A stretch of DNA of 64,000 bases from Terriglobia bacterium (GTDB lineage: Bacteria; Acidobacteriota; Terriglobia; 20CM-2-55-15): contig CBDCLE010000024.1 in the NCBI GenBank assembly GCA_965218585.1, positions 288,001 through 352,000 on the forward strand, read 5' to 3'. The translations under genes and the position numbers were made by a program. Every line of letters begins with the position of its first letter. Within the stretch, counting starts at the first letter, position 1. The notes under the pieces are model-generated. The model had not been told where the DNA came from. It did no database searches and saw nothing but the letters and a program-made list of their open reading frames with translations. Below are positions 39,452 through 62,387 of this stretch, piece by piece.

Positions 39452-39976
39452 TCAGAAAATTCCCAGGGGGCGATAAAAAGTGATCAATCGTCCGCAGGTG
39501 ATGATCGCCAGCCACAGGACCAGCGAAACTCCACCGATTATCCTGGCGATCTTCGGGGTCTGCCCACCGACTTCGACACCTGCGACGTCGCGATAGGTGG
39601 TGGTGTAGAAGATGAGCACGTTGATGCCTGTCAGGAACATGAAAATCATCTTGAGTTGAAACGCGGCGTTGTACATGTACTGATCCGGCTCACCTGTGAA
39701 AAAGAGGCTTCCCGTGATCATGTTCATTCCGTAGCCGAGAATACCAACGGGCACGAGTCTGTGCAACGTCTCTGGTTTGATGTTCTTAAAGAGTCCCAGC
39801 AGTCGCAGATCGAACAATCCAACGGTACCGATCAGAAGCGAGAGCCCCATAAAGTGGAGTGATTCGAGGATAGGCCACAAGTACGGGCTGCCTGTGACCC
39901 ACATCGACAACGCACTGTTGTCGAGCCAGAGTCGGAAGGATGTGACGATTTCAACAGACAGTAGAAAGTCGGTCAT
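39452..39976 (-). CDS. DUF6644-like multi-TM membrane protein (copy B)
   Basis: WPILESLHFMGLSLLIG...DLRLLG, TGSLFF...P..Y..N.AF.LKM, SLVLW.....GRLI. Confidence 0.75.
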   Translation of the reverse strand: MTDFLLSVEIVTSFRLWLDNSALSMWVTGSPYLWPILESLHFMGLSLLIGTVGLFDLRLLGLFKNIKPETLHRLVPVGILGYGMNMITGSLFFTGEPDQYMYNAAFQLKMIFMFLTGINVLIFYTTTYRDVAGVEVGGQTPKIARIIGGVSLVLWLAIITCGRLITFYRPLGIF

Positions 39977-39986
39977 TGACAGTTCA

Positions 39987-40490
39987 TTAGAAAAAGAAAA
40001 TGTCTTCGCTTGTCAGGCGGCTATAGGTGTAGGCCAGCAGACGCCCAGCTGTTGTCGCAGAAGCCCAGAGAAAGAGCGATGTGCCAGCCATAATCTTCAC
40101 CTTCTTCGGAACAAGGCCATCAGAATCAGGGTTGCGAATATGCCTTCTCAACTGTCTCAGAAGGAGGAGGGCTGCCGCAATGAGAACGAGTTTCAGGTAG
40201 AACACCGGGTTCGTGAAGGCTTTTACCGGATATGCAATGAGCAAGGCGATCCCGGACAGGACGTTGACGAAGAGTCCGAACCACATGACGGGGAACACAC
40301 GATCCAGGGAACGTAGAGGGATCGATTGGGCCAAGCCGAGGATTCTGACGTTGATGGCGGCATTGGTACCGACCAGAAAGGCCATGCCAAAGGCATGGAG
40401 TGTCAGCGGCAGGGGAAACGCCAACATCGAGGATGACTCGCGGAGCCAGCTGCCGAAGGCACTCTGTTCGAACCAGATCAGGATATCCAT
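39987..40490 (-). CDS. DUF6644-like multi-TM membrane protein (copy A)
   Basis: FPLPLTLHAFGMAFLVG...VRILG, SGIALL..YP...FTNPVFYLKL, SLFLW.....GRLLAY; paralog of the adjacent gene. Confidence 0.75.
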   Translation of the reverse strand: MDILIWFEQSAFGSWLRESSSMLAFPLPLTLHAFGMAFLVGTNAAINVRILGLAQSIPLRSLDRVFPVMWFGLFVNVLSGIALLIAYPVKAFTNPVFYLKLVLIAAALLLLRQLRRHIRNPDSDGLVPKKVKIMAGTSLFLWASATTAGRLLAYTYSRLTSEDIFFF

Positions 40491-40574
40491 TTAGTTGCCA
40501 CTCGTGAGGCCGCGGCAATGGTATCGGAAGCCGGGGGGGGAGATCAACGCTGTCGGGCGAATATTGCTAGGCCG

Positions 40575-40958
40575 TCAGGGTCGGCTTCGAATCCAAGTCC
40601 ACCCGTCCGAAGGACGTTCGATGCCTTTCAAATGGATCTTGTGCTCCGCGGGGTTTCGACCCGGACTGCCGGTGAGGATTATCCAGTCGCCCGCCTTTAG
40701 AGTGTTTTCGTTCACTCCGGCTCTGCCGAGCCGGTTGACGTTGGCCCATTCTGCCGCAAACATCTGCATCTCACCGTCTTCGTCGGGTGCCATTACGTAA
40801 ATCCATGCGTGGGGACTTCTCAGGGTGAACTCGAAGAGCTCACCTTCTACCGAAACTAACCGATCTTCAAAATAGAAACGGGCGAACGAATGGTGTGCGT
40901 ATGCGGGGATGCCCACAGCGAGAGTGAGAAGAACCAGGCCCGTCAACAGACGTTTCAT
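40575..40958 (-). CDS. DUF6152-like small secreted protein, mature N-terminus HHS (copy 1)
   Basis: Signal peptide ending AYA, then HHSFARFY...RSPHAWIYV...AAEW...LKAGD. Confidence 0.8.
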   Translation of the reverse strand: MKRLLTGLVLLTLAVGIPAYAHHSFARFYFEDRLVSVEGELFEFTLRSPHAWIYVMAPDEDGEMQMFAAEWANVNRLGRAGVNENTLKAGDWIILTGSPGRNPAEHKIHLKGIERPSDGWTWIRSRP

Positions 40959-41082
40959 GCGCTTGCTCTCTTCAGCCAGCATGCTCTTAGCTTAATACCG
41001 ACCGAGGAAAACGGAAAAGCCAAAAACAGATAAATCCCTGCAGACGACCACTTAGGGAAGCGTCCGTTGCGGGGGAGTCTGC

Positions 41083-41901
41083 CTAATACCACTCGCGGAT
41101 TCGCACCTCGATGTCGCTCTCGCTGCCGAGAGCGTTCCGAAACACCTCGGGGTCCTGACCACGGAAGTGATAGGGATAGACGATTGAAGGTCTGAAGGCC
41201 TTCGCGCAGTCCGCCGCTTCCTCCGGCGTCATGGTGAAGGGCAGGTTCATCGGCAGAAAAGCGACGTCGATGTTCTCCAGCGCCTGTATTTCCGGGACAC
41301 ACTCGGTGTCTCCGGATACGAAAATCCGTCGTTCGCCCATCGTTACAACGTATCCCTGGCCCCGACCCATTGGGTGGTAGAGCCCTCCTTCTTCCGGCCC
41401 CCGAGTGAGGTTGTAAGCAGGCACGGCTTCGATTCCGATGATCGTGTCCGGAAGACGGATCGCGCTGTACTCTCCGTTTAAATACACGGTGGCGGTAGTG
41501 ATCGTGTTCCAGACCTCACGGGGCGCTATGGTGACCGCCCCCGGCTTTCTCACCGATTGAGCCGCGTCGGGATTCATGTGGTCGCCATGGATGTCGGTGA
41601 TCAGGACAATATCCGCTCTGCGGTCCTGCATTTCGGAAAAATCACCCACAGGATCCACGTAAACTCTTCTCCCGTTCAATTCCAGCATCAGGCTTGCGTG
41701 CCCGATCGGGGTGATCGTCACGTCGCCTTCCGTGCTTTCGATGACGTCGGATACTGTGGGATTGTGCGGTGGCGCGGCTTGGCCACCACGACCGCGCTGG
41801 GCGGCGGATAGTTCGCTGCAGGGAATCCAGATGAGCAGAGCGCCATCCAGCAGGACGAGGCCCAGGCTGAACAATCGATTCTTTCCCAGGACGTCTTTCA
41901 T
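41083..41901 (-). CDS. MBL-fold metallo-hydrolase (UPF0173-like)
   Basis: GHASL, VDP, ITDIHGDH, AVPAYN, HPMGRGQGY, SGDTE, PMNLPFTM, YPYH. Confidence 0.88.
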   Translation of the reverse strand: MKDVLGKNRLFSLGLVLLDGALLIWIPCSELSAAQRGRGGQAAPPHNPTVSDVIESTEGDVTITPIGHASLMLELNGRRVYVDPVGDFSEMQDRRADIVLITDIHGDHMNPDAAQSVRKPGAVTIAPREVWNTITTATVYLNGEYSAIRLPDTIIGIEAVPAYNLTRGPEEGGLYHPMGRGQGYVVTMGERRIFVSGDTECVPEIQALENIDVAFLPMNLPFTMTPEEAADCAKAFRPSIVYPYHFRGQDPEVFRNALGSESDIEVRIREWY

Positions 41902-42179: not shown

Positions 42180-42548
42180 TCATTCACCAGGAAGGAGCGT
42201 CAGCTCTGATCCAGAACACTGATTCCCCAAATACATCCCGTGCGCTTCGGGATTCCTCGCTGGACAACCGACAGCGGTTATGGCCCGTCCTTCTTCCCAC
42301 CCGGCCGCATTCGACATCTCGACACGGTTGCCCCCATAAATAGTCCAGACAACCGTTTCTCCATCCGGCTCGGTGACTTCAACCAGCATGTAGGAGTGGG
42401 GATTCACCAACCTCAGGTCCACCACTACCCCGGTGACTTCCTCGGTGCGATCCAGAAAATAGAACGTCGCCTGCGAGTGGTGCGCCTCGAGGGGAAGGGT
42501 GAGGATCAAGAAGATGCCCATCATAAGGACTGAAATTCCAACTTTCAT
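42180..42548 (-). CDS. DUF6152-like small secreted protein, mature N-terminus HHS (copy 2)
   Basis: Signal peptide ending LEA, then HHSQATFY...LVNPHSYM...G.PAR. Confidence 0.8.
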   Translation of the reverse strand: MKVGISVLMMGIFLILTLPLEAHHSQATFYFLDRTEEVTGVVVDLRLVNPHSYMLVEVTEPDGETVVWTIYGGNRVEMSNAAGWEEGRAITAVGCPARNPEAHGMYLGNQCSGSELTLLPGE

Positions 42549-42589
42549 TTCTCTATTCTCCTTAAGCATGATTCCAAAATTGTCTTCGC

Positions 42590-43396
42590 CTATTCATCGC
42601 TGTGTTTCGGCGGAAGCATCGTCAGCGGTGCTGCCGCAGAGGTGGGATCGCAATCCACAATCCAATTGATCTCCCGGTCGGTCCGCTCGTATTCGAGGGT
42701 TTCTGTATAAGGCCGTGTGAGGAAAACAGGATCCTCAACGGTCAGGACCAATCTTAGACGGTCGGGTCCGACGAGCGAATAACGTTCTGTGACGTGCTTG
42801 GCCCAGGAAGAGGGGACCTGCGACTGATAGTCCATTCCGTTGGGATCAAAGGTAAAGTTACGCGTCTCGATGACGAATTCGTCCTCCTCGTAGCGCCCGA
42901 TCGAATGGCCGTAGAAGCCGACGTCGCCCGGCGGTGGGAACCCCCGGCCATCTGTCCAGATCGTCCGGGCGACCGTATAGGCCATGCTTCCTTCGTTTTC
43001 CCAGATGACGCGGTCACCTCGCTGAACGAGCCGTATGGGGTTCATCCACCCGAAAGTGCTTGGAATGGATTCGGGTATGCAATAGAACTTGCCCTCGACA
43101 GGTTCGTCCTGGAATGCCAGCCACGCGCGCGTCCGTGCGTTGATATGATCGGACCAGTCGAACCTGCAACCGCGACGGGGCAACTGACGTACGTCTTCCT
43201 CGATGATGAAGAAGGGCCCGCACGCCGGCGGATTGGACCGGCTCACCCGATCCCAGGTCCCGCTGATGTCTGGTATTTCGCCGTTCTGGGCCTCGGACCG
43301 GGCCGAAAGGTTCGTCGCGCCCACCAGGACGGCAAGCGCCATGAAGAAACTCGTGATCACAGTTTTCCGTCGCCTGTCTTTAGATCTGCTTGTCAT
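42590..43396 (-). CDS. Secreted DxxGxW large-partner protein (copy 3)
   Basis: PDISGTW, YCIPES, RTIWTDGR, YGHSIGRY, TERYSL, VEDPVFLTRPY, DCDP. Confidence 0.82.
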   Translation of the reverse strand: MTSRSKDRRRKTVITSFFMALAVLVGATNLSARSEAQNGEIPDISGTWDRVSRSNPPACGPFFIIEEDVRQLPRRGCRFDWSDHINARTRAWLAFQDEPVEGKFYCIPESIPSTFGWMNPIRLVQRGDRVIWENEGSMAYTVARTIWTDGRGFPPPGDVGFYGHSIGRYEEDEFVIETRNFTFDPNGMDYQSQVPSSWAKHVTERYSLVGPDRLRLVLTVEDPVFLTRPYTETLEYERTDREINWIVDCDPTSAAAPLTMLPPKHSDE

Positions 43397-43433
43397 CTTT
43401 TAACTACCTCGACACTCCATCGCGAAGTTGCGA

Positions 43434-44237
43434 TTATTCGTCTGAATATTTCGGCAGCAGCATCAATAGCGGTGCTCCTGCGGACACTGGATCGCAGTCG
43501 GTAATCCACTGGATCTCCCGATCCGTGCGGTCATATTCGAACGTTTCTGTATAGGGACGGGTCAGAAACACGGGGTCTTCGACGGTCAAGACCATGCGCA
43601 GGCGGTTGGGGCCTATGAGCGAATAACGTTCGGTGATGCGTTTGGCCCAGGAGGAGGGCACCTGCGACTGATAATCCATTCCGTTGGGATCAAAGGTGAA
43701 ATTCTGCGTTTCGACGACCAATTCATCGCCTTCATACCGCCCGATCGAATGCCCATAGTAGGCCACGTCGCCGGGGGGAGGGAGGGGGCGTCCATCTGTC
43801 CAGAAAGTACGGACGACGGTCGCCGCCATGCTCGCCGAAGATTCGGTGACGACGCGGTCACCTCGTTGCGATATCCGTACGACTCCTCGCGCCAGCGTAC
43901 TCGGGATGGATTCCGGAATACAGTAGAACTTACCTTCGACGGGTTCGTCCTGAAACGCCAGCCACGCGCGAGTCCGCGCGTTGATATGATCGGACCAGTC
44001 GAATCTGCAGCCACGGCGGGGCAAACCTCGCTCGTCTTCTTCGATGATGAAGAAGGGGCCGCACGCGGGCGGTCGGGTGCGCTCTACGCCCTGCCAGTTG
44101 CCGCTGATATCCGGCAGGTCCCCTGCTTCGGCCGGTGACTGGGCCCTGAGCCCTACCGCACCCACAATCATCGAGACGCCGACCAGAGCAGCCGTAGCGA
44201 TTGTGTTCCAAGCGCCGAGATGAGATGAACGCGTCAT
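43434..44237 (-). CDS. Secreted DxxGxW large-partner protein (copy 4), tandem duplicate of 42590-43396
   Basis: PDISGNW, with long stretches identical to the neighbour (RGCRFDWSDHINARTRAWLAFQDEPVEGKFYCIPESIPST). Confidence 0.82.
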   Translation of the reverse strand: MTRSSHLGAWNTIATAALVGVSMIVGAVGLRAQSPAEAGDLPDISGNWQGVERTRPPACGPFFIIEEDERGLPRRGCRFDWSDHINARTRAWLAFQDEPVEGKFYCIPESIPSTLARGVVRISQRGDRVVTESSASMAATVVRTFWTDGRPLPPPGDVAYYGHSIGRYEGDELVVETQNFTFDPNGMDYQSQVPSSWAKRITERYSLIGPNRLRMVLTVEDPVFLTRPYTETFEYDRTDREIQWITDCDPVSAGAPLLMLLPKYSDE

Positions 44238-44501
44238 TTCTGTCCTTCCTCCTGTCACAAGCGCACTCCGCGCTGCACACGTCTCGCTCTTCCCAGAGCC
44301 GACCCGATCTCGTCGTGGTCGAACTGTTTACCGGATTGCTTCGTTACCAATACATCCCAAAAAGAATTCGTACGATTGGAGCAAATCTAACTACAGATTG
44401 GAGTTGTACGCAAGAAAAGTCTCCGATTCCCCTCAACCCGGGCCGGAGCTTTATCGACGATCCGGGGTAACGCGTTGTTCAATTACGCGCTCCCGGAATA
44501 A

Positions 44502-46850
44502 TCAGAAGCGCAGTTTCGTCTGAACGGTGAACTGGCGGCCCGGACCCAGTGCCGTTCCCGAAAAAACGCCGCTGAAGTTGATCACGTTGAGGTGATCGGT
44601 CGCGTTGCGCAGGTCGAACTGAACCGATACCGACCGGTCCTGCTGCTCCCACAAGAGCAGCCCCAGAGAAACATCGACGCTGAACACCGAGCGGAGCCGC
44701 CCCCAATCGAAATCAACCCGGTCGAGGATCGCCTGCGAGATCTGTTGTGTGTCGGCGTCGGGTTTGCTCCCGTCATCTTCACCCCCATCATCGTCCTCGA
44801 GTTCCACGGGCAACCCGCTGCCGTAACGGACTCCACTGGAAAACCAGAACCGTCCCTCCGGCTGGACACGGAATAACGCCGACACAGTGTTACGCTGATC
44901 CTGACTGATTGAGAAACGTTCCCCGGGGAGTCGTAATTCGTCGGCTTCGCCGCCTTCGATAAATAGTCCTCCCGTAACCGGTGAGGTCGCGTGCCCGATC
45001 ATGTTCGAGTAGCTAGCCGATGAAGACAGCCAACGCCAGGAGGGCAGATCGAGGCGCACCTCGGTGCCTGTAACACGGGCCGTGTTGAAACTGATAGGGA
45101 ACGATAAACCCGTGTTCAGAAAGACGTCGTCGTCCACATAATTCCGGAATGTCCGCCAGTACTGACTGATGTCCAGGCGCACCGCATCGAAGAATGGTTT
45201 GCCGAGGCCGACTTCAAAGAAATGACCGCGTGAGGCAGGAACGGCGACCGATTCGGAGACTTCGTCCAGTCCCAGCTCTCCTGCCGCACTGCTGAACAGG
45301 AGATTCTCAGTCGGCGGAGGTTGAAAGATGCGGTCATATGCCGCCCGTAATTGTATGTCCACCGCCGGAATCCAATAGCTGACGGCAACCCGCGGACTGA
45401 CGGCGTCATCATTGATCAGGAAATCATAGTGGTCATAACGGAGTCCGATGTTTGCCGCAAAGTTTCCTAAGCGCACCTGGTCCCGGACGAAAAGGGAAAA
45501 TTCCTGACTCTGCTTCTCGCCCTGAAAGTCTACATCGAAGCCCGGATGAGCTTCGGTTTCGCCGAAGCGGAATGCCTCTCGTATATCGCTGATTCGAACA
45601 TCTCCACCAAATTTCAGCGTATGACGCTCGTCCTCGAAGGTGAGGTCTGCTATCAGCGTCGACTCCCGGAAACCTCGATCCTGTTCGACGCGTACGGGTG
45701 TCGCCTGCGGATTGCTCCAGAGCCGGGCCGAGAGATCGCGATGCATGAATCGAACGGTTCCCAGGACATTGGTTGAAACAACTCGCTGGTAGTTCACCCC
45801 CAAGGCGGTCTCGCCGGAAAACCTGTCTTGTCGTTGGCCCGCTTCTTGCTGGGTGAGGTCGTTCGGGACCAGGAACCGGCTTTCACCAGTCCGCACATAG
45901 AACGAAATCCGATCCTGGGGAGTCAAATCGTGGTCAATCCGAAGATCAAAACCGCCCGTCGTCGCCTTGTTCGTGAAGTTTTCCCTCGACGGAGGGTCCA
46001 AGTAACGGTCGGTCGAACCACCCCGACTACCAAGAGAAATCGACGTGTTGTCGGTCCCAACCTGGTATCGAATGGATCCGGCGCGGTTGTCGAAGCTGCC
46101 GAGCTGGGTGTCGATCTCGATTCCGTGGCCGGGCGTGCCGACTCTACGGGTGTCGAGAGCTATGACACCACCGAGACGTCGACCATATTCGGCCGGGAGA
46201 CCACTGGTCATGACGTTAACGGCCTCAAATTCGGCCGTCTCGAAACCAGGAGCGAAGCCGATCGACCGGTTGTCATAGACGGGCATCCCGTCCACGACGT
46301 ACTGGGTGTCGTATTCCGATCCTCGAGGATGAAGGACCGCGTTAGCTTCTACCAGCCAGCCCGGTAGAGTCGTGACGACATCCACCGCGCTGCGGCCGAG
46401 GGTTGTCCCTGCAATCCTCTCGAGCTCGGTGCGGCCGATCTGCATCACTGCCGCGGGCTGAGCGATGTCCAGGAGAGGGGCCGTATCGGTCACCGTAATG
46501 GCAGTCGAGGTCCCTGCTACTTCCAGTGAGACAGTAATGTTGCGGGGAATGGCCGTCCGGATTTCAATCGTAGTGCCGAACTCTCGAAATCCGATTCGGC
46601 CGACCGTGAGGCGATACGTTCCCGGCCGCAGCCGTAGCATGCGCGCCAGCCCCTCCGGGCCTGTCTCGGCTCTGGCTTCGAATCGGGGATTCCGGCCTGC
46701 CAATTCGACATCCGCGAGAGGGAGGGCCAGCCCCTCGGAGTCGGTGACCAGAACGCGGATTTCTCCTTCCATAACCTGGGCCTGTGCGAGACCTGTTCCG
46801 AACAGAACGATAGAGAGCAATCGGATCCAAGTGCCGAGTTCTTTCATCAC
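44502..46850 (-). CDS. TonB-dependent receptor with an N-terminal carboxypeptidase-regulatory-like domain
   Basis: Signal peptide, PGTYRLTV, plug motif RG...YVVDGMPV, GLRYD, SPR, and a C-terminal GPGRQFTVQTKLRF. Confidence 0.88.
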   Translation of the reverse strand: MMKELGTWIRLLSIVLFGTGLAQAQVMEGEIRVLVTDSEGLALPLADVELAGRNPRFEARAETGPEGLARMLRLRPGTYRLTVGRIGFREFGTTIEIRTAIPRNITVSLEVAGTSTAITVTDTAPLLDIAQPAAVMQIGRTELERIAGTTLGRSAVDVVTTLPGWLVEANAVLHPRGSEYDTQYVVDGMPVYDNRSIGFAPGFETAEFEAVNVMTSGLPAEYGRRLGGVIALDTRRVGTPGHGIEIDTQLGSFDNRAGSIRYQVGTDNTSISLGSRGGSTDRYLDPPSRENFTNKATTGGFDLRIDHDLTPQDRISFYVRTGESRFLVPNDLTQQEAGQRQDRFSGETALGVNYQRVVSTNVLGTVRFMHRDLSARLWSNPQATPVRVEQDRGFRESTLIADLTFEDERHTLKFGGDVRISDIREAFRFGETEAHPGFDVDFQGEKQSQEFSLFVRDQVRLGNFAANIGLRYDHYDFLINDDAVSPRVAVSYWIPAVDIQLRAAYDRIFQPPPTENLLFSSAAGELGLDEVSESVAVPASRGHFFEVGLGKPFFDAVRLDISQYWRTFRNYVDDDVFLNTGLSFPISFNTARVTGTEVRLDLPSWRWLSSSASYSNMIGHATSPVTGGLFIEGGEADELRLPGERFSISQDQRNTVSALFRVQPEGRFWFSSGVRYGSGLPVELEDDDGGEDDGSKPDADTQQISQAILDRVDFDWGRLRSVFSVDVSLGLLLWEQQDRSVSVQFDLRNATDHLNVINFSGVFSGTALGPGRQFTVQTKLRF

Positions 46851-50426: not shown

Positions 50427-50431
50427 TTCTT

Positions 50432-51187: not shown

Positions 51188-53296
51188 CTACCGGGCCAGC
51201 GGATCGGGCCGTACCTGGAAATGTACGACAAGCGGCCTGTTTCCCTGACCGCCTTCCATGAGCCAGGGTGTCCGATCACCTTCCGAGACCCACAACCCGC
51301 GGCCCTTCCAGCCGGCATCCGGGTCGTCTATGCGCCCGTCAAACCCCTTGCTGTAGAAGCCCATCGGGTATGGAATACGGAGGGTCACGAACTCGCCGTC
51401 CACAAGAGCGTGAACGCCGTCAGCGAGGTTCCCCGTGGCGATCGGGACGTTCTCACCGAGTCCGGAAGAATTACGCTGGTCGACCCAGGTGTAGTAGCTG
51501 GACTCGACGCTGAACTCCGGCAAGTCGTCGAAGCCGGGCCCGGGCAGATCATGCAGGGTCCAGCCTTCCTGACAGTGGTCTCCGGTGGCATCCGGACCAT
51601 TCAATGGCCCTGTGCATTTACTGCGATCAAACTCACCCATGTGTCCGCTTCCAAGTGACGCCCAGACCACGCCGTTACGGTCGATGTCCGCGCCTCGGAC
51701 CCCGAACCCCGGGGCCGGAGGACGATAGATCTCTCCGAGCCCGGTTTCCGGATCGTATCGGACGACGGCGCCCCTAGCCTGGAAGGCGTTCGATCCCCAG
51801 ATAGAACCGTCAGCGGGGTTCGGCATTACGGCGTAGAAGCCCGCGTTGATTCGTGTGTCCATCTGTGGGTTTGCGGGTTCATCCGGTTCGGTCCAGTCGT
51901 CCCGTTGGCCATTACCATTGGTATCCAGAATGAGGGGCGACCAGCCCTGTGAAGCTTCGCTGTCGCCGGTCTCGTCATACATCCTGGTGTCGAACCAGCC
52001 GACCACGGGGCCACCGCCACTGGTCCAGAGCGTGTTGTTCTCGTCCTCGGCGAACTGAAGATGGTGCGTCCCGTAACAGGTGTCTATGGGCGTATATTCT
52101 CCGGTATCCGGTTCGTACACGGCCAGCTGCCGTCCCGAGCGGGCGTTGGGAAACAGTTGGGCGGATGGATGATCGGAACCTTCCTGGCAGAAATCCGGAT
52201 TGTTCGGTCCCCGGACTCTTGCGGTGTACCAGACACGGCCGTCTTGGTCGAACATCGGGTTGTGGGCGTTTGCCTGGCTGTCCCATATGATCTCCTCACC
52301 CCAATAGGGTGAAGCCGCATACGGAGGTGTGCTCGCCGTTGTCGGTGTATCCGGGTCCAGTACCCGAGCCCTCAAGCTGGTGTCCGTGTTGGCGACCGGG
52401 TCAAGGATCGGGAAATCGTCCGTGCTGAGCTCCGGGGCCCCATAGATCCGGCCATACGGGTTGAGGGTGGGGTCGCGGCGGTCGGTGGATGCTAGATCGT
52501 GCATATAGACCGAAGGGCTGCCCCAGTCCCGGACCGTCGCGACAACGTTCCGCTCGATCCCGGACGGTCTGTCCGGCACGGTCTCGGGTATCTCGCCGGC
52601 AGCAATACGATCGGTCCAGTCCGCCAGGTACTTGATGGGAATGCCCTGCAGGCGGCCGGTCACCTGTCCCAGCATCTGTCCGCCGGCCTGCCCGGATTGA
52701 ATCCGGCGCGTCCAGGCATCTTCGGAGGATTCGAACTCTCCCAGGCTTTCCGGTATCGTGCGGGTCGATGCCTGACCTAGCTGGTGGCAACCGATGCAAC
52801 CCATGTTCTTCATGAAAGCGAGATACGAGTTCATGCCCCCCGGAATGTTTTCCACTTCACTTTCTTCGGGCAGGTCCATCATGGAGTACCAGTGACTGGC
52901 AGGGTAGACCTGGGCGGCCGTAGCGGCGTCAGCAGCAACAACGGCGGTAAGGTCGAGCATGTCTCCGGGTGAGGCGGCCACCTTCGCTGAGTCGCTCAGA
53001 CCATAGCCGCGAACCCAGATGTCGTAGTCTGCGCTCGGGAGATCGGGAACCACGTAGCGTCCCTCGTCATCGGTCACCACGATCCGGGCGAATCGTGTTT
53101 CAAATTCTTCTGTTTCCGCGATGACCCAGACGCCGGCTTCCGGGCCGTTGGCGCTGGTGACGACACCCCCGATATCGTCGTTATCGATCTGGAGTGTGGA
53201 ACTTTCCGCCCCCTGACATCCCGTCATGACGACGACCATCAGAATACCCAGAGCAAAAACGGTGCTTTTACAGTACAAGCCGTTGCCTATCCTCAT
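51188..53296 (-). CDS. Lipoprotein: carboxypeptidase-regulatory-like domain, CxxCH cytochrome c motif and Vgb-like beta-propeller
   Basis: Lipobox-like VMTGC; GPEAGVWVIAET; VVTDDEGRY; WVRGYGL; CIGCHQLG; HNPMFDQDGRVW; GTHHLQF; RGADIDRNGVVW. Confidence 0.8.
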   Translation of the reverse strand: MRIGNGLYCKSTVFALGILMVVVMTGCQGAESSTLQIDNDDIGGVVTSANGPEAGVWVIAETEEFETRFARIVVTDDEGRYVVPDLPSADYDIWVRGYGLSDSAKVAASPGDMLDLTAVVAADAATAAQVYPASHWYSMMDLPEESEVENIPGGMNSYLAFMKNMGCIGCHQLGQASTRTIPESLGEFESSEDAWTRRIQSGQAGGQMLGQVTGRLQGIPIKYLADWTDRIAAGEIPETVPDRPSGIERNVVATVRDWGSPSVYMHDLASTDRRDPTLNPYGRIYGAPELSTDDFPILDPVANTDTSLRARVLDPDTPTTASTPPYAASPYWGEEIIWDSQANAHNPMFDQDGRVWYTARVRGPNNPDFCQEGSDHPSAQLFPNARSGRQLAVYEPDTGEYTPIDTCYGTHHLQFAEDENNTLWTSGGGPVVGWFDTRMYDETGDSEASQGWSPLILDTNGNGQRDDWTEPDEPANPQMDTRINAGFYAVMPNPADGSIWGSNAFQARGAVVRYDPETGLGEIYRPPAPGFGVRGADIDRNGVVWASLGSGHMGEFDRSKCTGPLNGPDATGDHCQEGWTLHDLPGPGFDDLPEFSVESSYYTWVDQRNSSGLGENVPIATGNLADGVHALVDGEFVTLRIPYPMGFYSKGFDGRIDDPDAGWKGRGLWVSEGDRTPWLMEGGQGNRPLVVHFQVRPDPLAR

Positions 53297-53474
53297 CTCG
53301 TTCTCTCCCTCAGGTGGATTTGGTTCCGCCGATTCTATCATTCCGGTGGGTTCGGGCGTGTGTGTTAGTGAACGGTTGTTTTTCCCTCTCCGCGATGATA
53401 TCCACTGTACTTGAGTGTGCCAAGTTTGGCAGAAAGCAGGTTACTGGCCCCATCTCGAAAAAGGACTGTGAATC

Positions 53475-53848
53475 GTGACGCTGGGAGATCTGAACAAACA
53501 TAAATACGTGGCGCTGGAGACGTATAAGAAGAGCGGTCAAGGCGTGAGCACGGCGATGTGGGTCACGGCCAAAGCCGACGCTTTGTACATGCTGACGGAC
53601 GCGAACAGCTGGAAGGCGAAACGAATCCGGAACAACGACCGGGTTCGCCTGGCCCAGAGTGACTCGAAGGGAAAACTGTGAAGGGTGAGTGGGTGGACGC
53701 CAAGGCCCGGCTTCTTGATGATCCTGAGATACTGGCGGCACAGAAGCGGCGAGCCGTGGCAAAATACGGCGTGATGGTCCGATTGATGTCTCTTATTGTG
53801 CGACTGACCGAACCCGGGCGAGTCGATGTCGTGATTGAGATTCAGTGA
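53475..53848 (+). CDS. PPOX-class (F420-dependent) oxidoreductase with a frameshift near 53675
   Basis: KYVALETYKKSGQGVSTAMW...SWKAKRIRNNDRVRLA. After a 1-nt shift it continues VKGEWVDAKARLL...AKYG...VVIEIQ*. Confidence 0.75.
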
Positions 53849-55757
53849 ATAGGTGGAAACAGATGAATGTGATGACAAGGCTGAAAGATGTTTACGGAGC
53901 GAAGATGTGGAAAGTCTCCTTTGAATCCGCCACGAGCTTGGTCCTCGTGTCGATTCTCAGTGTAAGCATATCTCCGGTGGCTCTTGCCCAGGGCTTGAAC
54001 GCTGGACCAGGGTCGAGCGAGGAGCAGCGGGCACGCATGGAGTTGCCGGAGGTTGAATCTCGGGCCCGGGATTTCGCGACTGCCGAAGAACACTACGACT
54101 ACCTGCTGGAGGAAGCTGACGGCGGCACCCGGCACACGATGGCCACCATACCGGTCTGGGACGGACTCTGGGGTTCGGGGAACAACACGATGCCCGGCCT
54201 GTTCTTAGAAGATGGATCGCTGGCGATTGCCATGAGCCCAGGCGGAACTGTGAAAGAAGACGTCTTGACTCCTGCCTATGAGCAGCAGTTTCGGGAACGT
54301 CGAGCGGAACTGGAACAGTACGGCGAACAGCTCTACGACCACCTGACCAACTGTGAGTACCCCGGTGCAGCGCGCTGGCTCTGGGAGCCGTATATCAAGG
54401 AGTTCGTCAACACGCCGAAACAGACTTGGATGCTAAACGACATGATGAACGAGACCCGCCGCGTCTATATCGGTGCCGAACACGTCAACATCGAAGGAGC
54501 ACACTCGGCGACCGGCGACAGTATCGGTTTCTGGGATGATGACAAGCTGGTCCTGTGGACCAAATGGATTCAACCGGTCGACTACCTGCGCGGCCTACCG
54601 TTGACCAGCAATCAACTCGAGATGGTAGAAAGCTGGCAACAGATCACGGGAGAGGACGGGGCCAGAATGTTGGTCACCCAGGTGACGTTTTACGATCCCA
54701 TCGGACTGGTCAGGCCACAGTCGGCCGTTTACAGTCACAATTCCCGCCCGGACCTTGAGGAATTCGGTGTCCGGATCCGAAACTGGGAATGCCCGACCAG
54801 CACCAACTCTTACCTAAGGCGTGTTAACACTAATGAGCATGAATGTTTTATAATCAGGCATGGAGATCACACAGGAGCAGTATTGTCGCATCGAGCCGGA
54901 ACTGCCGCGTCAGCGGGGCAACGTCAGTCTTTCGAACCTGACGGTCTTGAACGCCATTTTGTATGTGGCTGAGCAGGGCTGCAAGTGGCGCGGTCTGCCC
55001 AAGCGCTTTGGCAACTGGCACACCATCTACACCCGGATGAACCGCTGGTCCAAGAACGGGGTGCTCGACGCCGTCTTCGAAAAAACTCCAGCGCGAGCAA
55101 CTGGTGCGCATCCGGGTGGAAGCCGTTTCGATGGACTCGACCATTGTGAAGGTGCATCCCGACGGCACGGGAGCGTTAAAAAAAACGGTCCGCAAGCGAT
55201 CGGCAAATCCCGCGGTGGATGGACCACCAAGATTCATCTGGTTGCCGCGAATGCTCGAACGGCGATAACGTTTGCGCTCTCGCCCGGCCAAGCGCACGAC
55301 GCCCCGCAGGGCCGCGATCTGCTCGCCGGCCTGGGGCCGTTGCCCGCGCCGCTGCCGCTGCTGATGGACCGTGCCTACCAGGACGACCAGACCCGCCAAT
55401 TGGCTCTGGATTTTGGGTGGATTCCCGTCGTGCCGCCCAAGCGCAACCGCCTGGAGCCGTGGGAATACGACCGCGTGCTCTACCGCCGCAGGAACGAAGT
55501 CGAGAGGCTCTTCCGCCGACTCAAGGGTTTTCGGCGTATCTTCTCCCGTTTCGATAAACTCGACGTCATGTTTCCTCGCCTTCCTTCACTTCGCACTCAT
55601 CGTCGAGGCACTACGTTAGTGTTAACACGTCCTAGCTGAGGACGGGACAACGCAGTTTTACCTGCCGGGAGATCTCGAATACAAGGATCCGCGCGGGTTT
55701 ACGGATTTTCCGGATATCCCGGGTCAGTCGCTCAATCCTATTTTCGATGCGCAATGA
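53845..55757 (+). pseudogene. Secreted DxxGxW large-partner protein (copy 5), interrupted by an IS5-family element
   Basis: PVWDGLW, NCEYPG, ETRRVYIG, GDSIGFWD, FYDP, WEC. Removing the IS and one TA restores SYLAEDGTTQFYLPGD...IFDAQ* ending at 55757. Confidence 0.82.
54817..55632 (+). mobile_element. IS5-family element (IS427-group-like)
   Basis: TIRs AGGCGTGTTAACACTAA and GGACGTGTTAACACTAA (rc); TA duplication in a CTAG target. Transposase 54860-~55619 with GCKWRGLP..FG.W.TIY, SRGGWTTKIH, DRAY, YRRRNEVERLF; A8 slippery site at 55178-55185. Confidence 0.92.
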
Positions 55758-55797
55758 GTCACTGAGGGCAAAGAGCCAAATGGAGAGGAAGACGACG

Positions 55798-56262
55798 ATG
55801 AAAAACCTAATGCTTGCCGCATTCGTGATCGCCACCTTGTGCGTGGCTGGTACGGCCACGGGCCACCATTCGTTCGCGATGTTTGATACAGCCCAGGAAA
55901 TGTTGATTGAGGGACGTGTTGTGGACTGGCACTACAACAACCCGCATAGTTGGCTGTATGTCGAAGCTCCCGATGAAAACGGTGAAATGCAGACCTGGAG
56001 TATTGAGGGGGCGGCACGGGTGCATGCTGCCCGTCAGGGCGTGACCGGTAACACGTTTCGAAAAGGTGAATTTGTCAGGGTGGTGATGAACCCTCTTCGG
56101 GACGGGCGACGCGCCGGTGCGGTGTGCATCGTCGTCAAAGAGGACGGAACCATTGCACAGCCGAATGACGGGACATGTATCGCAAACGACGTTATCGACC
56201 GGTGGGAGTCAAACGGGTGGTTTGAGACGACCGGTCATCTCGACGTTCATCCTGCCGACTGA
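55798..56262 (+). CDS. DUF6152-like small secreted protein, mature N-terminus HHS (copy 3)
   Basis: Signal peptide ending ATG(ly), then HHSFAMFD...YNNPHSWLYV...WSIEG...NPLRDG. Confidence 0.85.
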   Translation: MKNLMLAAFVIATLCVAGTATGHHSFAMFDTAQEMLIEGRVVDWHYNNPHSWLYVEAPDENGEMQTWSIEGAARVHAARQGVTGNTFRKGEFVRVVMNPLRDGRRAGAVCIVVKEDGTIAQPNDGTCIANDVIDRWESNGWFETTGHLDVHPAD

Positions 56263-56875: not shown

Positions 56876-57715
56876 ATGGATCATGCCAGTAGTTTCAGAA
56901 CAGTAGCCAAGAGGGCTCGGGGCGCGATGATCTCTTTTTTCGTGGCAGCCGCCGTGCTGGTAGGCCCCATGGACATTGCAGCTCAGAATCCCACGATCTC
57001 TCCGGTCGGGTCGGATTTTCTTGGGACCTGGCGCAAGACGAGCCCGGGCGGAAACTGCGGTTCCCTCCTAGACCCTTTCGGCGGCCCTCGTGAGTTTTGT
57101 CAGTTTCCGGTCGATCAACTCGAACCGCTTTTGAACGGAAGGGCCCGGGCATGGATCGAGTTTTCCGACGAAACCTTGTCGCCGAGATGGGCCTGCGTCG
57201 CGGCGGGAATCCAAACCGTGTTGACCGATGCCGGGGGCTACCTTTGGACCATATCCACGAGGCCTGATGCGGTCGTGCAGTCCTTCGAGCAGTCCAACTG
57301 GGTGCGTTACATCTGGATGGACGGCCGGGGCCATCCGCCTGCTACCGACATCTTTTATCACGGACATTCGATCGGCCGCATGGACGGCAACGTGTTGGTC
57401 GTCGAAACTACGAATTTTACGTTTGATCCGGATGGCTGGGACGACCAGTCCCACATCGCCACTTCGCATCTGAAGAAGTTGACCGAGCGCTACATACCCA
57501 CCGGCACGGACACTGTGGAGATTGAATTCACCGTCGAGGATCCTGTTTTTCTGAAGGCGCCTTTTACGTGGAGCCATACGTATGGAAAGACCGATCAACA
57601 GTTCATCGGTTCCTGGGACTGCGATCCCGAGGTTGGCTTGCGGGAACTGTATCAGTCGATTCCGAGCAGGTACGAGGACGACACGACGCCAGCGAGGTAT
57701 ATAAACAGCTTCTAG
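56876..57715 (+). CDS. Secreted DxxGxW large-partner protein (copy 6)
   Basis: SDFLGTW, WACV, RYIWMDGRGHP, YHGHSIGR, LVVETTNF, TERY, VEDPVFLKAPF, WDCDP. Confidence 0.85.
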   Translation: MDHASSFRTVAKRARGAMISFFVAAAVLVGPMDIAAQNPTISPVGSDFLGTWRKTSPGGNCGSLLDPFGGPREFCQFPVDQLEPLLNGRARAWIEFSDETLSPRWACVAAGIQTVLTDAGGYLWTISTRPDAVVQSFEQSNWVRYIWMDGRGHPPATDIFYHGHSIGRMDGNVLVVETTNFTFDPDGWDDQSHIATSHLKKLTERYIPTGTDTVEIEFTVEDPVFLKAPFTWSHTYGKTDQQFIGSWDCDPEVGLRELYQSIPSRYEDDTTPARYINSF

Positions 57716-57727
57716 CGGGAGGGTAGA

Positions 57728-57898
57728 GTGGCGAAACTTTTGGTTCCCACAATTTTGGCCGTTACCTTTCTTGTTCTGGCCGTCCCGATCCAGGCACACC
57801 ATTCGATCACTGCACTCTGGTTTACGGACCGAAGCATTCCGATCACCGGGCTTGTGCGTTCGTACGGACAAGAAGAACTCGAAAGAAACCTGGACTAG
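57728..57898 (+). pseudogene. DUF6152-like HHS protein (copy 4), truncated next to the IS1595 remnant; not in the ORF track
   Basis: GGAGGG RBS, then GTG: MAKLLVPTILAVTFLVLAVPIQA|HHSITALWFTDRSIPITGLV..., stopping before any NPH motif. Confidence 0.78.
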
Positions 57899-58187: not shown

Positions 58188-59575
58188 GGAGTTATTGTCA
58201 AAAGTGGTGTTTTGCCGATTGACTCAAGCGGCGGCCTGATCGACGTGGGTCACTTCGATTCCATCGTTGAATTTCACTCCAGTAATCACCTTGGGCAGAT
58301 CATCGAATCCTCGTAATCGTCGCCAGTTCTTTTGAGCGCACTGTCCCAGTTTGAACATCATGTGCAGCATGCCAACCCGCGTCAGGCAACCCCTGGATCG
58401 CTTGGTTCGGTGGCGAATGGTAGCAAAGGTCGACTCAATGGGATTGGTCGTTCGGATGCTCTGCCAGTGCTTGGCCGGGAAGTTGAAGAAGGCCAGCAGT
58501 TCTTCTTTGTCTTTCTGGAGGCAGCGAGTGGCTTTCGGATACTTCGGCTCATAGGTTTCAATGAACAGATCGAATGCCTTCTCGGCGTCTGCCTGTGTCT
58601 GAGCCCGCCAGATCGCGTGCAAAGCCTGTTTCGCCTTCGCCTGGGCCGACTTCGGGAGCCCGTTCAGTACGTTCATGGTCTTGTGCATCCAGCAACGTTG
58701 GTGACGTGTCTCGGGATAGATTTCCTCCAGTGCGGCCCAGAATCCCATCGCACCGTCTCCGATGGCCAACTTCGGGATATTCATCCCACGCGACTTCAGC
58801 TTTAACAAGACCTCGCGCCAACTCTGTGTCGATTCCCGGACACCGTCTTCGATTGCCAGAAAACGTTTCTCTCCGCGTTGATTCGCGCCGATCACCACCA
58901 GTGCGCACAACTTGGTTTCTTCGGCCCGCAGTCCGCTGTAGATACCGTCGGCCCAGACATAGACCCAGCGATCGGCATCCAATCGCTCCTCGCATCCCCG
59001 GCGGTACTGCTCGGCCCAGACCTGTTTCAACCGCGATACCGTGCTCGCCGACAGGCCCTGCGCCTGGGGTCCGACAAGAACTTTTAGAGCGTCACCCATC
59101 TCGCCGCTGGAGACGCCTTTCAAATACAACCACGGCACCGCTGCTTCCAGCGATTTCGTTTTCCGAATGTAGGGAGGTACCAGGGCCGACCGGAACGTTA
59201 CCGGGTCGCCAGTCTTCGCTCGGACTTTCGGGATCTGGACCGTTACCGGCCCCAAACCGGTCTGCAGTTCACGTTCAGGCAGATAACCGTTGCGCACCAC
59301 CCCGGCGTTGCCCGTCTCGGTTCTCCGATCGCCGTGGTGGGATAGCAGTTCCGCCAATTCGGTTTCCACCGCGCGTTGGATCAGTTGCTGAGCTCCAACT
59401 CGTAGTAGCTCTGTTATCGGATCCTCAATCGTCTCTCGACCCTCCGGTCCATTCACGTTACTCTTGCTCATAGTGGCGTATCTCCCTTGGTTGCTTTGAA
59501 GTCTGGTAAACAACAAATCAACCAGATACGCCGCTCTTCCTCAATCCCTTAAACACCAGATTCGGTTATAACTCC
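58188..59575 (-). mobile_element. IS256-family element; transposase 58224-59471
   Basis: TIRs GGAGTTAT..TGGTGTTT at both ends; RNGY, YLKGVSSG, WADG, GDGAMGFW, QRCWMHK, TTNPIES. Confidence 0.93.
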
Positions 59576-59657
59576 CGGACTTTGAGCAACGACGCAAGAA
59601 GGCGATCGTTACTACAGAAGGGGCCGCCGAAGTTCGTTTCCAGCAAGCTCTCTATTA

Positions 59658-61121
59658 CTACTATGTTACAAACGAAGCGGTCCACAGAACGGACAACGAG
59701 GAAGCTGCTGAATCAGGAAGCGGGCGATGCGAATGCGAAGCGTGGCAATCGAGCAGGGGTTATGTCGTTCGGGCCGGATCCGGGGTTCCGCGGGGTTTGA
59801 AGTGTTTGGGGAGTTTGGGGACGGATAGTCCAACATGCTCGACAAATGCAGAGGGGGAAAAACGGCTCCGCTCGGCGACCAGGAACCCATAAGAGGCAAT
59901 ACATAAGGTGCCATGATGGTGAAATCCACGCCAGCCGCGACCTTCGTAGTGTCCCAGACCGAGTTCCTGCTTGAGTTCCTGATAGTCGCGTTCGATGATC
60001 CAGCGCTGTTTGGCCTGACCGGCCAGATCGGAAAGCGAGGTATGGGCCCCAAGAGTGGAGAGCCAGTACCGGATCGGTTCGGATGCGGTCTTGGGCCACT
60101 CGACCAACAACCACTCTTTCGGATGCGGCGAGTGGCGCTCGTGATCCAGATGAGCGGGACGAATGCGAACTGCGGCGAAACGGGAACGCAGGGTCTCGGA
60201 GGTGCCTTCGCGCCAGGAGACGTTCTTCCAACGCTGGGGAGACAACGAGAGGGCCAGTTGCTTGACCGAAACCGGTTGATGTTTCTTGTTGCGCTGCATG
60301 CGGGTCGGTGTCCGTCCGCGGCCGGTCAAGGATTTCGGCGGCAAGGGACCCTGGCCCGGTTTCCACACGGTCGTGGTGCCTTGCACCCCTAGGACGTAGC
60401 TAAGTCCGAGTTCGGTGATGCCGTGCCGGAACTTGTAGTTGTTGCCGTAGGCCGTATCGCCCAGAACCGGTGCCGGAGCAATGCCGTCATCGACGGCCTG
60501 CCGGATTTGTTCCAAAGCAATTTGAGGTTTAGTTTGAAATCGAACGTCTTCGGGAATAGCGGCTTTGCTTCGACGTTCCGGATCCTTCGCCCAGGTCTCG
60601 GGGAGGTAGAGTCGCCATGCCACCGGCAAGCTGGATTTCGCTGTCGCCACCGACAGGCTCACCGCCACCCGGCAGTTCTCAGGTTTGCCGACCTGTCCAC
60701 AGTATTGCCGGGCCACACCCACCGAGTGGGTCCCCTTTTTCACGAATCCGGTGTCGTCGACAATCCAGGCTTCAATCGGACCGTTGGCTTCCATCGCCCC
60801 CAGCGCGTACTGTCGAACTTCTGCCAACAGAGCCGCATCGTCCCAGGGCGCATCCGCGACCAGATGATGTAGCGACTGGTGCATTCGGCGTACATTATCC
60901 GGAGCCAATCGTGCAGCCATCGGCTCCACACTCTTACGTTTGATCGGCAGCAACAACCCGGTGCAGTACGACTTCAACGGTTCATGACGATCGGCGTGTC
61001 CTGCGGCCGACGCCAGGCGTTCCAAATAGGCCGCAAAACGTTTTTCCTGAGTGCCTGGCGCCTTCGATTTGGCGCTCATGACCGGATGCTAACATAAAAT
61101 AGACCGTTTGTAACACAGTAG
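59658..61121 (-). mobile_element. IS701-family element; transposase 59760-61079
   Basis: TIRs CTACTATGTTACAAACG and CTACTGTGTTACAAACG (rc); RKSVEPMA, DDTGFVKKG.HSVGVARQYCG, D.AYG, RWIIERDYQELKQELGL.HYEGR.W.GFHHH. Confidence 0.93.
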
Positions 61122-61229
61122 TACTAGACGGAATCCTCGACAAGACGGGGAAGATACCAGACGGTGAAGAAGATCTCTGCTTTCAGGGGTCAGCTTGTCC
61201 TTGAGCCTCCTTACACGCAAGCACCGTCC

Positions 61230-61258
61230 TTGAAAATCTGGCTCCCTTTGACGATAAT
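61230..61258 (+). promoter_or_regulatory. Putative sigma70 promoter
   Basis: TTGAAA-N17-GATAAT upstream of 61422. Confidence 0.4.
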
Positions 61259-61421
61259 CGCCTCAATGGCCGCGACACATTCAAAGCGCTCGAACCGCAC
61301 CTGACGCGGGGGGCACTGGGCGGCCGGAAGAGCTTTTTGGGTGGGTCTTTCCGTAGATCTGCAGGGTTTCTTCTAATACTCCGTTACCTGCATGGGTGTG
61401 TGCTGACAAGGAGCAAATGGC

Positions 61422-62387
61422 ATGGCGTTCGGAACAGCAAAACTCGGCGGACTGGCGGCGTTGTCCGCTTTGATGGCCCTGGGGCTGACCAGCCCGCTCG
61501 ACGCCCAGAGGGGTATTGCCGGGATAACCGATTTTTCTGGCGAGTGGGTCGACAACTCGTTTGAAGGAGACGATCGCGGCGGGCCCCGCACGGCGGGTCC
61601 GAGTCGAGCGAACGGACTCCAGCCCGATGCGTGGCTCGGCAACTACCTTGGCATACCCTACAACGACGCCGGACGGCAGAAAGCCGCAGCCTTCGATCTT
61701 TCCATCTATTCCCACCCCGCCTGGATGTTCAGACCCCACCCTGTCCAGTATTCGATGCGTGGGGTCATCGCCCAGTGGAGGATGTCGAAGGAAATCAATC
61801 CACTGAACGGCAGGTTAGTGGCCTATCGAATCACGACTGGTTACAACCTCGACCGGATCATCTGGATGGACGGACGTGGGCACCCACCCGCTTATGCCGA
61901 ACACTCCTACCAGGGCTTCTCGACCGGACGGTTCGAGCGTGGAATGCTGGTGGTGACGACCACGCACATGAAGCACGGATACCACAGGCGCAACGGCGCC
62001 CCGGCGAGCGACCAGGCGACGATGACCGAGCACTTCATACGTCATGACGACCGGTTGACGATCGTGCAGTTCACTGAGGATCCGATATATCTCGAGGAGC
62101 CCTACGTTCGTACCGGGGACCATGTCCTGGCACGCGATCGGCATGCGGCAATTGCTTTCATAGGTCCCACAGCCGCGGGCTGGGGTGCAATCGAAGAGGT
62201 CATGTGGGACGAGGGTTACCTTCCGCATTACACGTTGGGTACCCGTCACCCACAGCTTGCGGACTGGCTCGGAGTCCCCTATGAAGCGACTCAAGGGGGA
62301 AGTGAAACGATCTATCCCGAATACCGCGAGACGTTGAGGCAGTTGATGAGTGAAACCGGGACAAGCACATCCCGTGGTGGGAGGTAG
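61422..62387 (+). CDS. Secreted DxxGxW large-partner protein (copy 7), Cys-free
   Basis: TDFSGEW, RIIWMDGRGHP, YQGFSTGRF, LVVTTTHMK, EDPIYLEEPY, GGSETIYPEYR; closest to 11611-12510. Confidence 0.85.
   Translation: MAFGTAKLGGLAALSALMALGLTSPLDAQRGIAGITDFSGEWVDNSFEGDDRGGPRTAGPSRANGLQPDAWLGNYLGIPYNDAGRQKAAAFDLSIYSHPAWMFRPHPVQYSMRGVIAQWRMSKEINPLNGRLVAYRITTGYNLDRIIWMDGRGHPPAYAEHSYQGFSTGRFERGMLVVTTTHMKHGYHRRNGAPASDQATMTEHFIRHDDRLTIVQFTEDPIYLEEPYVRTGDHVLARDRHAAIAFIGPTAAGWGAIEEVMWDEGYLPHYTLGTRHPQLADWLGVPYEATQGGSETIYPEYRETLRQLMSETGTSTSRGGR

Follow-up and report, generated by a model that had tools for sequence, protein, structure and literature searches.

A 64,000-nucleotide window of the genome of a Terriglobia bacterium (assembly GCA_965218585.1, contig CBDCLE010000024.1; host genome of 4.55 Mb in 26 contigs, 95% complete) raises the question of what is built by small secreted proteins that begin with His-His-Ser (HHS) in their mature form and are encoded repeatedly beside larger secreted proteins. 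We denote the small DUF6152 protein S, the large family L, a family of secreted metallo-beta-lactamase (MBL)-fold hydrolases T, and the DUF6644 membrane protein M. The reading that we favour, although we rate it somewhat below an even chance, is that these four part types make up a modular periplasmic system for hydrophobic substrates, in which S would be the metal-bearing part. None of S, L and M has a characterised member, and L is absent from Pfam and from all curated models searched. NCBIfam models likewise gave nothing for S, L, M or their fusions, and neither DUF6152 (PF19649) nor DUF6644 (PF20349) is named in the literature searched, by name or by accession. The initial annotation of this DNA, which knew of no characterised function for these families, is borne out to the extent that Pfam, NCBIfam, the PDB and the literature searched yielded no match to a characterised system.

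The genes (named here by their first coordinate; Table 1) include a co-oriented run on the minus strand, which reads receptor 44502, L 43434, L 42590, S 42180, MBL 41083, S 40575, M 39987 and M 39452. This confirms that the minus-strand copies share their orientation with a TonB-type receptor and an MBL hydrolase, and that a further HHS gene, 40575, directly precedes two paralogous membrane proteins, as had been proposed. The suggested assignments to DUF6152 and DUF6644 also hold in Pfam. All three intact S genes (40575, 42180 and 55747) score above the DUF6152 gathering score of 27, and M 39452 exceeds that of DUF6644, which M 39987, its paralogue, just misses. The receptor combines a CarboxypepD_reg match with a partial OMP_b-brl_4 match, with no plug-domain match in the Pfam scan. 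A terminator-like site just past 39452 was the only informative outcome of the promoter and terminator scan.

In each of these three S proteins the signal peptide ends right before His-His-Ser. The same architecture extends to 47 paralogues, all of which match DUF6152 and carry His-His straight after the signal peptide, with the cleavage site inferred from sequence. H30, H31 and H58 (numbering of S 42180) are invariant among them, P57 is nearly so, and 40 have Ser at position 32. When scored as patterns, a strict Ax[AGS]-HH fits 26 of 51 S, and HH[SGAT] occurs within the first 90 residues of 49 of 51. Among S domains of other taxa, 58 of 66 contain HH[SGAT]; the other eight comprise four truncated open reading frames (ORFs), one domain with HHN, one (L109_1775_2098_-) in which the profile match starts only at position 36 with no HH upstream, and two fusions that have lost the motif. 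A PDB sequence search with the S profile returned nothing meaningful.

We counted the parts in our own six-frame ORF set with jackhmmer, against 4703 greedy gene calls. These counts are approximate and leave out S below 100 aa and L below 200 aa, the latter including short matches (53-93 aa) that were artefacts of the IS-derived tail of the 53845 ORF (IS, insertion sequence). The totals are 96 L, 51 S, 50 T, 11 S-L fusions and 7 M, and the genome holds 73 DUF6152 matches. The whole system amounts to roughly 215 of ~4700 genes, or about 4-5% of the genome, a scale that the initial annotation had missed. Over 1000 label shuffles that considered immediate neighbours, 33 of 51 S adjoin an L or a fusion, compared with a shuffle mean of 2.3 and a maximum of 8, and chance is therefore excluded genome-wide. 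Under the same procedure T adjoins L in 22 of 50 cases (shuffle mean 2.2), and M adjoins S, L or a fusion in 4 of 7 (shuffle mean 0.45). Both gene orders occur, with 19 S-then-L and 14 L-then-S arrangements among 55 S. The DUF6152 domain comes first in all 11 S-L fusions of this genome, an order that keeps HHS at the mature N-terminus, and one further ORF is an L-T fusion. When the distance matrices of S and L were compared over 45 pairs, they correlated with a Mantel r of 0.52, a value reached in 0 of 2000 permutations, and 19 of 45 pairs had the same nearest neighbour. This correlation shows duplication of the genes as units, not binding as such.

The proposal had also depended on conservation of the large/small adjacency in other genomes, which is found in low-copy relatives and in other phyla as well as in the natural S-L fusions. 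Across this genome and 40 relatives, DUF6152 occurs in 19 of 24 genomes of the same taxonomic family and in 1 of 16 from other families of the class; it is present in 0 of 14 control genomes. Most of the DUF6152-bearing genomes of the family have 45 to more than 91 matches each under a scoring cap. Genomes with 1-3 copies keep the L/S adjacency, and two of these have DUF6644 genes beside the pair or beside S; in relative G014, S immediately precedes the membrane pair. Of 10 loci from relatives, 8 contained L-T fusions, 575-683 aa long. In the search of relatives with the L profile at E up to 1e-60, which scored no more than 66 candidates, the zeros for three genomes (G008, G018 and G031) are threshold effects, because our own hidden Markov model (HMM) finds L in all three.

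A pattern search with L orthologues retrieved 537 relatives, whereas one started from a single S protein found none and the S alignment yielded no conserved stretch. We scanned the best 80 loci within 3 kb of the L match; these were picked by L match and scanned with HMMs from this genome, so that the shares are not unbiased frequencies: S was present in 49, T in 39, M in 9 (mostly paired), an S-L fusion in 14 and an L-T fusion in 7, while L stood alone in 8. The 80 loci come from Terriglobia, Vicinamibacterales, Bryobacteraceae, several Gammaproteobacteria, Rhodospirillaceae and Acidimicrobiia, and S comes first in all 14 fusion-bearing loci of other taxa. Three loci from Acidobacteriota (L067, L068 and L069) encode S-L-T-M-M with gaps of 6-21 bp. 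In L067 this operon is headed by a TonB-type receptor of the same type as 44502, directly in front, and its make-up is that of the minus-strand run in our window.

The L family can be delimited by its profile. L 43434, 42590, 53845, 56876 and 61422 have no Pfam or NCBIfam family; in a representative library clustered at 50% identity, the L profile finds 22,406 proteins at E up to 1e-3, 13,542 at 1e-10 and 2,697 at 1e-30. A lenient Pfam scan of 78 L members produced single chance matches only, with no family common to any, and a PDB sequence search with the profile gave nothing meaningful. The 30 nearest protein-atlas clusters are all unnamed; the nearest named one is DUF3471 at 0.79, which we regard as a lead only. 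Members are secreted proteins of ~270-330 aa with one invariant Gly, two semi-conserved Cys, and conservation of at least 90% at G46 and W48 (of the DxxGxW motif), R144, L174, T178, D222 and P223. The best 150 relatives in the representative library include proteins of 450-530 aa in which L occurs twice in tandem, along with proteins of ~580-650 aa with a single L stretch that are probably L-MBL fusions.

Fold assignments come from an AlphaFold2 (AF2) model of a 346-aa S-L fusion paralogue encoded outside the window, built with 137 paralogues (mean pLDDT 83, pTM 0.69). Its residues 31-121 are predicted to adopt an oligonucleotide/oligosaccharide-binding (OB) fold of the SSB, PriB and LysRS anticodon-domain type (Z 7.3-8.8; top rows Z 8.0-8.8 with root-mean-square deviations (rmsd) of 2.5-4.6 A). 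Residues 137-327 superpose on calycin barrels, namely fatty-acid-binding protein (FABP), bile-acid-binding protein, cellular retinol-binding protein (CRBP), UnaG and nitrobindin (THAP4), with Z 8.5-9.8 over 111-124 residues and rmsd 3.0-4.3 A; Foldseek assigns this barrel a probability of 1.0 and a template-modelling score (target) of 0.53-0.61. Beyond the barrel, L has ~100 extra residues at the N-terminus and a C-terminal tail.

We then predicted the complex of mature L 42590 (residues 36-268) with its cognate mature S 42180 (residues 30-129). The interface suggested by the initial annotation is confidently predicted, with an ipSAE of 0.61 (runs 0.60, 0.62 and 0.61) against 0.00 for the best of three controls, a pLDDT of 85-86 for the partners, and at least 90% of contacts shared between runs. 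On S, the predicted interface comprises residues 31-32, 34-37 and 55-60 and covers both His motifs; on L, most of it is formed by the variable C-terminal tail that follows the conserved Cys249, with residues 62, 72-76, 138-139 and 191 also taking part. The predicted complex supports binding between S and L, short of demonstrating it.

T emerged from unbiased clustering of neighbouring genes, in which 25 of 40 members of the cluster lie within two genes of S or L (hypergeometric 3e-18), and it constitutes an integral third component that the initial annotation had missed. It is a secreted MBL-fold hydrolase with an HxHxDH motif, which reads THYHGDH in the representative and in the alignment consensus, and the scanned T genes have Lactamase_B matches. 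A crude test for a hydrophobic N-terminus was positive for 47 of 51 S, 82 of 96 L and 35 of 40 T, compared with 35% of other ORFs. More widely, the neighbours are rich in MBL proteins, amidohydrolases, PQQ (pyrroloquinoline quinone) dehydrogenases, formamidases, dienelactone hydrolase and VOC enzymes, a gene content more in keeping with the breakdown of diverse organics in the periplasm than with metal uptake.

Table 1. Genes and other features of the window that belong to the system or interrupt it, with the basis of each assignment.
Feature	Position	Strand	Basis
TonB-dependent-receptor-like outer-membrane protein, first gene of run	44502..46850	-	Pfam CarboxypepD_reg + OMP_b-brl_4; weak TIGR01785/6
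L gene, secreted, DxxGxW near mature N-terminus	43434..44258	-	No Pfam family; profile E 1.8e-70; 72% identity to 42590
L gene, cognate of S 42180 (20-bp gap)	42590..43396	-	No Pfam family; profile and similarity to paralogues
S gene, DUF6152; mature start His30-His31-Ser32, His of NPH motif is His58	42180..42569	-	Pfam E 2.1e-12, 47.4 bits
Secreted MBL-fold hydrolase, Lactamase_B_3 type	41083..41901	-	Pfam E 2.8e-19
S gene, DUF6152, directly upstream of membrane pair	40575..40982	-	Pfam E 6.7e-19, 68.2 bits
DUF6644-like membrane protein (M)	39987..40490	-	Pfam 24.7 bits (below cut-off of 27); paralogue of 39452
DUF6644 membrane protein (M), helical bundle, invariant His41	39452..39976	-	Pfam 30 bits (cut-off 27)
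Divergent L gene, 5' part, cut by IS	53845..54817	+	Profile E 3e-44 over residues 43-321; border from blastn
IS5-like insertion sequence, splits L gene 53845	54814..55635	+	DUF4096 + DDE_Tnp_1
Detached 3' end of split L gene, stop over start of S gene	55637..55757	+	Frame translation
S gene, DUF6152, probable start 55798	55747..56262	+	Pfam E 1.5e-27, 96 bits
L gene	56876..57715	+	202 homologues, all unnamed, all without Pfam family
S stump, 56 aa (signal peptide and HHS only)	57728..57898	+	ORF list and similarity to paralogues
Lone L gene beside IS elements	61422..62387	+	Similarity to paralogues and family profile
L gene, 4-base overlap with start of T gene	11611..12603	-	Similarity and family profile
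T family secreted MBL hydrolase	10643..11614	-	T member by jackhmmer; weak NCBIfam SoxH-related MBL match
L gene, convergent with L-T pair 12603-10643	9637..10572	+	Family profile E 1.3e-66

Further members and neighbours are spread over the window. L genes and a secreted MBL gene at 9637-12603 lie outside the range that the initial annotation had named. At 51188-53341 on the minus strand, a 717-aa secreted protein has CarboxypepD_reg and a CxxCH (heme c) motif and no other family match, and of its four paralogues in this genome, three are encoded no more than two genes away from S or L. Upstream, an NHL/TEN-NHL repeat protein longer than 1188 aa (6-3572) and two DUF5117+DUF4953 met-zincins (12731-15319 and 25823-28051) are apparently unrelated.

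How might the parts work together? In the mechanism that we propose, the barrel of L would hold a small hydrophobic or amphipathic substrate, and the His-His of S together with its NPH His would form a metal site that uses the free N-terminus. S would dock onto L, giving an S-L heterodimer with a composite site. T may hydrolyse the same L-bound substrate, a step that we include because of the L-T adjacency and the L-T fusions. The M pair would act as a low-copy inner-membrane partner common to all modules and serve S with metal or electrons, and where a TonB-dependent receptor is encoded alongside, it would import the substrate. The ~215 genes per genome would then reflect diversification over many organic substrates. 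In a bolder version, which we hold to be doubtful, S-L would be a new class of periplasmic metalloenzyme with an OB-fold His-brace-like centre at the mouth of a calycin barrel, loaded or reduced by the DUF6644 pair and working in series with the MBL, with about a hundred specificities per genome for the recalcitrant organic matter met by soil, sediment and host-associated bacteria.

Several observations weigh against the modular system as we describe it. An S is missing within 300 bp of 61 of the 96 L, as is an L for 19 of the 55 S, and many L therefore act without a neighbouring S. Co-diversification could arise from duplicated neighbour units without any binding. L has no universally conserved metal ligand. 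Two S-L fusions of other taxa (L102 and L113) lack His-His, and the sole L-then-S fusion (locus L050, 9399-10499, in relative G024) lacks both the HHS and the NPH motif; the OB-barrel association is therefore not always dependent on these motifs. The fold matches are middling (Z below 10) and hold at the level of fold only. The ipSAE mark that our complex passed had been attained in calibration by 58 of the 80 solved complexes and by 2 of the 110 mismatched pairs, counts that apply only roughly here because we supplied our own paralogue alignments. Finally, the MBL of the window run, 41083, is not a T member by jackhmmer and belongs to another MBL subfamily, although it sits where other operons have T, and the closest solved relatives of T are generic MBLs that give no clue to the substrate. 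The PDB matches of the T profile include SdsA1 (E 2.3e-14), to which T is no closer than to class B beta-lactamases or chlorothalonil dehalogenase.

Some of these points would suit a non-catalytic periplasmic carrier, in which L would ferry hydrophobic compounds between the outer membrane and hydrolases or the inner membrane, S would be its lid or adaptor, and the His residues would serve docking or pH sensing instead of binding a metal. The FABP-like barrel accords with such a carrier, the L-T fusions resemble hydrolases with a lipid-binding domain of their own, and both the fusions without His motifs and the many L without S would be unsurprising. A carrier nevertheless leaves the His-His at the cleavage site and the third His in 47 of 47 paralogues hard to explain without a role for the free amino terminus, and the same applies to the strict S-first order, kept by all 11 fusions of this genome and in all 14 fusion-bearing loci from other taxa. 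We judge this explanation unlikely.

The membrane pair bears on two further explanations. DUF6644 has 1819 homologues with invariant H41, G50, R58, G61, G89 and K109, and 45 of 49 aligned homologues match the family at E up to 1. Its AF2 model is a helical bundle (pLDDT 94), which gave no Foldseek match at E up to 1e-3. In a wide fold search the best hit was a designed two-heme four-helix bundle (Z 11.1), with cytochrome bd and b561 at 8-9; these values lie below the level that is informative for helical bundles, and neither heme binding nor CopD likeness can therefore be read from them. Weak Pfam matches of the homologues were to CopD (PF05425) in 2 of 49 (best E 1.1e-3) and to DUF2214 in 17 of 49. 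A comparison of DUF6644 with 13 enterobacterial CopD sequences of low diversity by hhalign gave a probability of 0.7% over 19 columns around the conserved His; the CopD analogy that had been drawn for the membrane pair is not supported by this comparison and stays a lead. The host genome, 95% complete, has no PF05425 match. M numbers just 7 genes in a genome whose soluble parts have expanded, as would suit a service role common to all modules. One member of the pair is longer in many operons, at ~300-340 aa (for instance L067 5277-6299, L097 1079-2011 and L025 301-1230), with the DUF6644 domain in its C-terminal half and N-terminal ~150 residues without a family.

One of these explanations is acquisition of a metal or metallophore, in which the receptor would import a chelate, L would hold it, the MBL would open it and S would pass the metal to a DUF6644 importer. 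Siderocalin, which binds siderophores, provides a model for the L barrel in such a scheme. The operon order receptor-S-L-T-M-M and three invariant His at a free N-terminus accord with it, and so do the weak CopD and DUF2214 matches of M in a genome without a canonical CopD. A precedent exists in the YcnI/YcnJ model, where a His-brace protein hands Cu(II) over to a CopC-CopD importer (PMC12362106). Against this, ~100 L and 60 S copies per genome are far above known needs for metal uptake, and M has not expanded alongside S and L. A cluster of receptor-sized neighbours (736-791 aa) has 8 of 27 members within two genes of S or L, and is receptor-like by size alone. The neighbours are mostly hydrolases and dehydrogenases rather than metal genes, and hhalign gives DUF6644 against CopD a probability of 0.7%. 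Metal acquisition is, in our estimation, distinctly unlikely.

The other is copper homeostasis of the true CopC/CopD type in a new guise. The N-terminal His after cleavage, the place of S immediately ahead of the membrane pair, seen both in the window and in G014, and the weak CopD matches recall such systems. S, however, is predicted to be an OB fold and not a beta-sandwich like that of CopC, LPMO (lytic polysaccharide monooxygenase) or PmoB, His-brace proteins to which the initial annotation had pointed. None of the 47 S members matches CopC or a related Pfam family at E up to 1 among the families listed (25 of 35), and the similarity of DUF6644 to CopD is not significant. Neither the paralogue numbers nor the MBL and barrel partners have a counterpart in Cop systems, and we consider this origin very unlikely.

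The state of the window's pairs needs a correction. Three large/small pairs had been reported; their ORFs are real, yet two of the three pairs are IS-damaged, a feature that had gone unnoticed. An IS5-like element of ~820 bp interrupts L 53845 near codon 323, and the last ~40 codons of the gene resume in frame beyond the element and end over the S start, so that the ancestral state was a coupled L-then-S pair. In the third pair, S 57728 is a 56-aa stump, cut by IS remnants, which follow it together with an IS256-like element. The DxxGxW motif ascribed to the large genes holds for 43434; in 53845 the N-terminal motif is not a clean DxxGxW, and this gene has no BLAST similarity to other L genes, its membership resting on the profile (E 3e-44). 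The IS5-like element has 27 further blastn matches in the genome (95.9-100% identity, a few of them partial). Contigs of 4 sequencing runs stop at the IS borders, and none spans the IS5-like element; in public contigs, IS depth is hundreds-fold over the depth of the flanks. The IS5-like, IS256-like and DDE_5 elements of the window (54814-55635, 58189-59574 and 59652-61126) each have many near-identical copies genome-wide, and of 28 IS5-like copies 11 stand beside S or L genes, an enrichment by the hypergeometric test (5e-6). Two T genes and a gene for a pyridoxal-phosphate enzyme of Cys/Met metabolism are each broken into two ORFs (L001 14441-15456, L002 6828-7824 and L010 8998-10154); taken with the IS load, these breaks suggest that gene decay is still under way in this genome. 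That there is no system at all, and that neighbours merely co-expanded by segmental duplication in IS-rich regions, would accommodate the many IS copies beside S and L and the Mantel result, but is barely credible given the adjacency kept in genomes with 1-3 copies and across phyla, independent fusions in two combinations, short or overlapping gene junctions, and a predicted interface that passes with clean controls.

We thus return to the modular periplasmic system as the preferred reading. It occurs at the same scale in most genomes of the taxonomic family, the same operon is found in Acidobacteriota, and a system of this size and conservation is probably behind some major trait of these bacteria of soil, sediment and groundwater. 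Should the N-terminal His site bind metal, the few known centres of the His-brace type would gain an OB-fold scaffold, and the periplasmic processing of hydrophobic compounds would become open to testing from there. No paper in the literature searched combines 'histidine brace' with 'OB-fold'.

Among known systems, CopC/CopD and YcnI/YcnJ come closest in layout. For the latter, an N-terminal His-brace protein is reported to exchange Cu(II) with a CopC-CopD importer (PMC12362106; PMC8424229). Both systems share with ours a small secreted protein that begins with His once mature and conserves another His, and whose gene adjoins that of a small polytopic membrane protein carrying a conserved His in one of its early helices. 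They differ in that S has a predicted OB fold in place of the CopC/DUF1775 beta-sandwich and no CopC sequence match, in that DUF6644 is not significantly CopD-like, and in that S, whose metal is putative, comes in dozens of copies with barrel and MBL partners. Measured against His-brace proteins in general (CopC, YcnI, LPMO and PmoB), S has the His as first residue and departs from them in fold and homology; for the second His of a brace, His58 is invariant, and residues 31-32 and 55-60 fall into one patch of the predicted interface. The L core superposes on the calycin barrels of FABP, lipocalin and nitrobindin at the level of fold, whereas there is no sequence relation (0 of 78 L share a Pfam family, and there is no PDB match), and L differs in its ~100-residue N-terminal extra, its two semi-conserved Cys and the C-terminal tail that forms the predicted S interface. 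SdsA1 is an MBL-type alkylsulfatase with an SCP2-like domain. SdsA1-like alkylsulfatases resemble the T-L combination in that a secreted MBL domain is joined to, or encoded beside, a module that binds hydrophobic compounds; here, by contrast, that module is a calycin barrel, usually encoded by a separate gene, and the OB partner has no counterpart. YceI/YceJ, finally, pairs a periplasmic lipocalin-like protein with a cytochrome b561-type membrane protein. It is alike in encoding a periplasmic beta-barrel ligand binder together with a small helical-bundle membrane protein, and differs in the absence of a sequence or significant fold match, the best matches of DUF6644 being generic four-helix bundles (Z up to 11.1).

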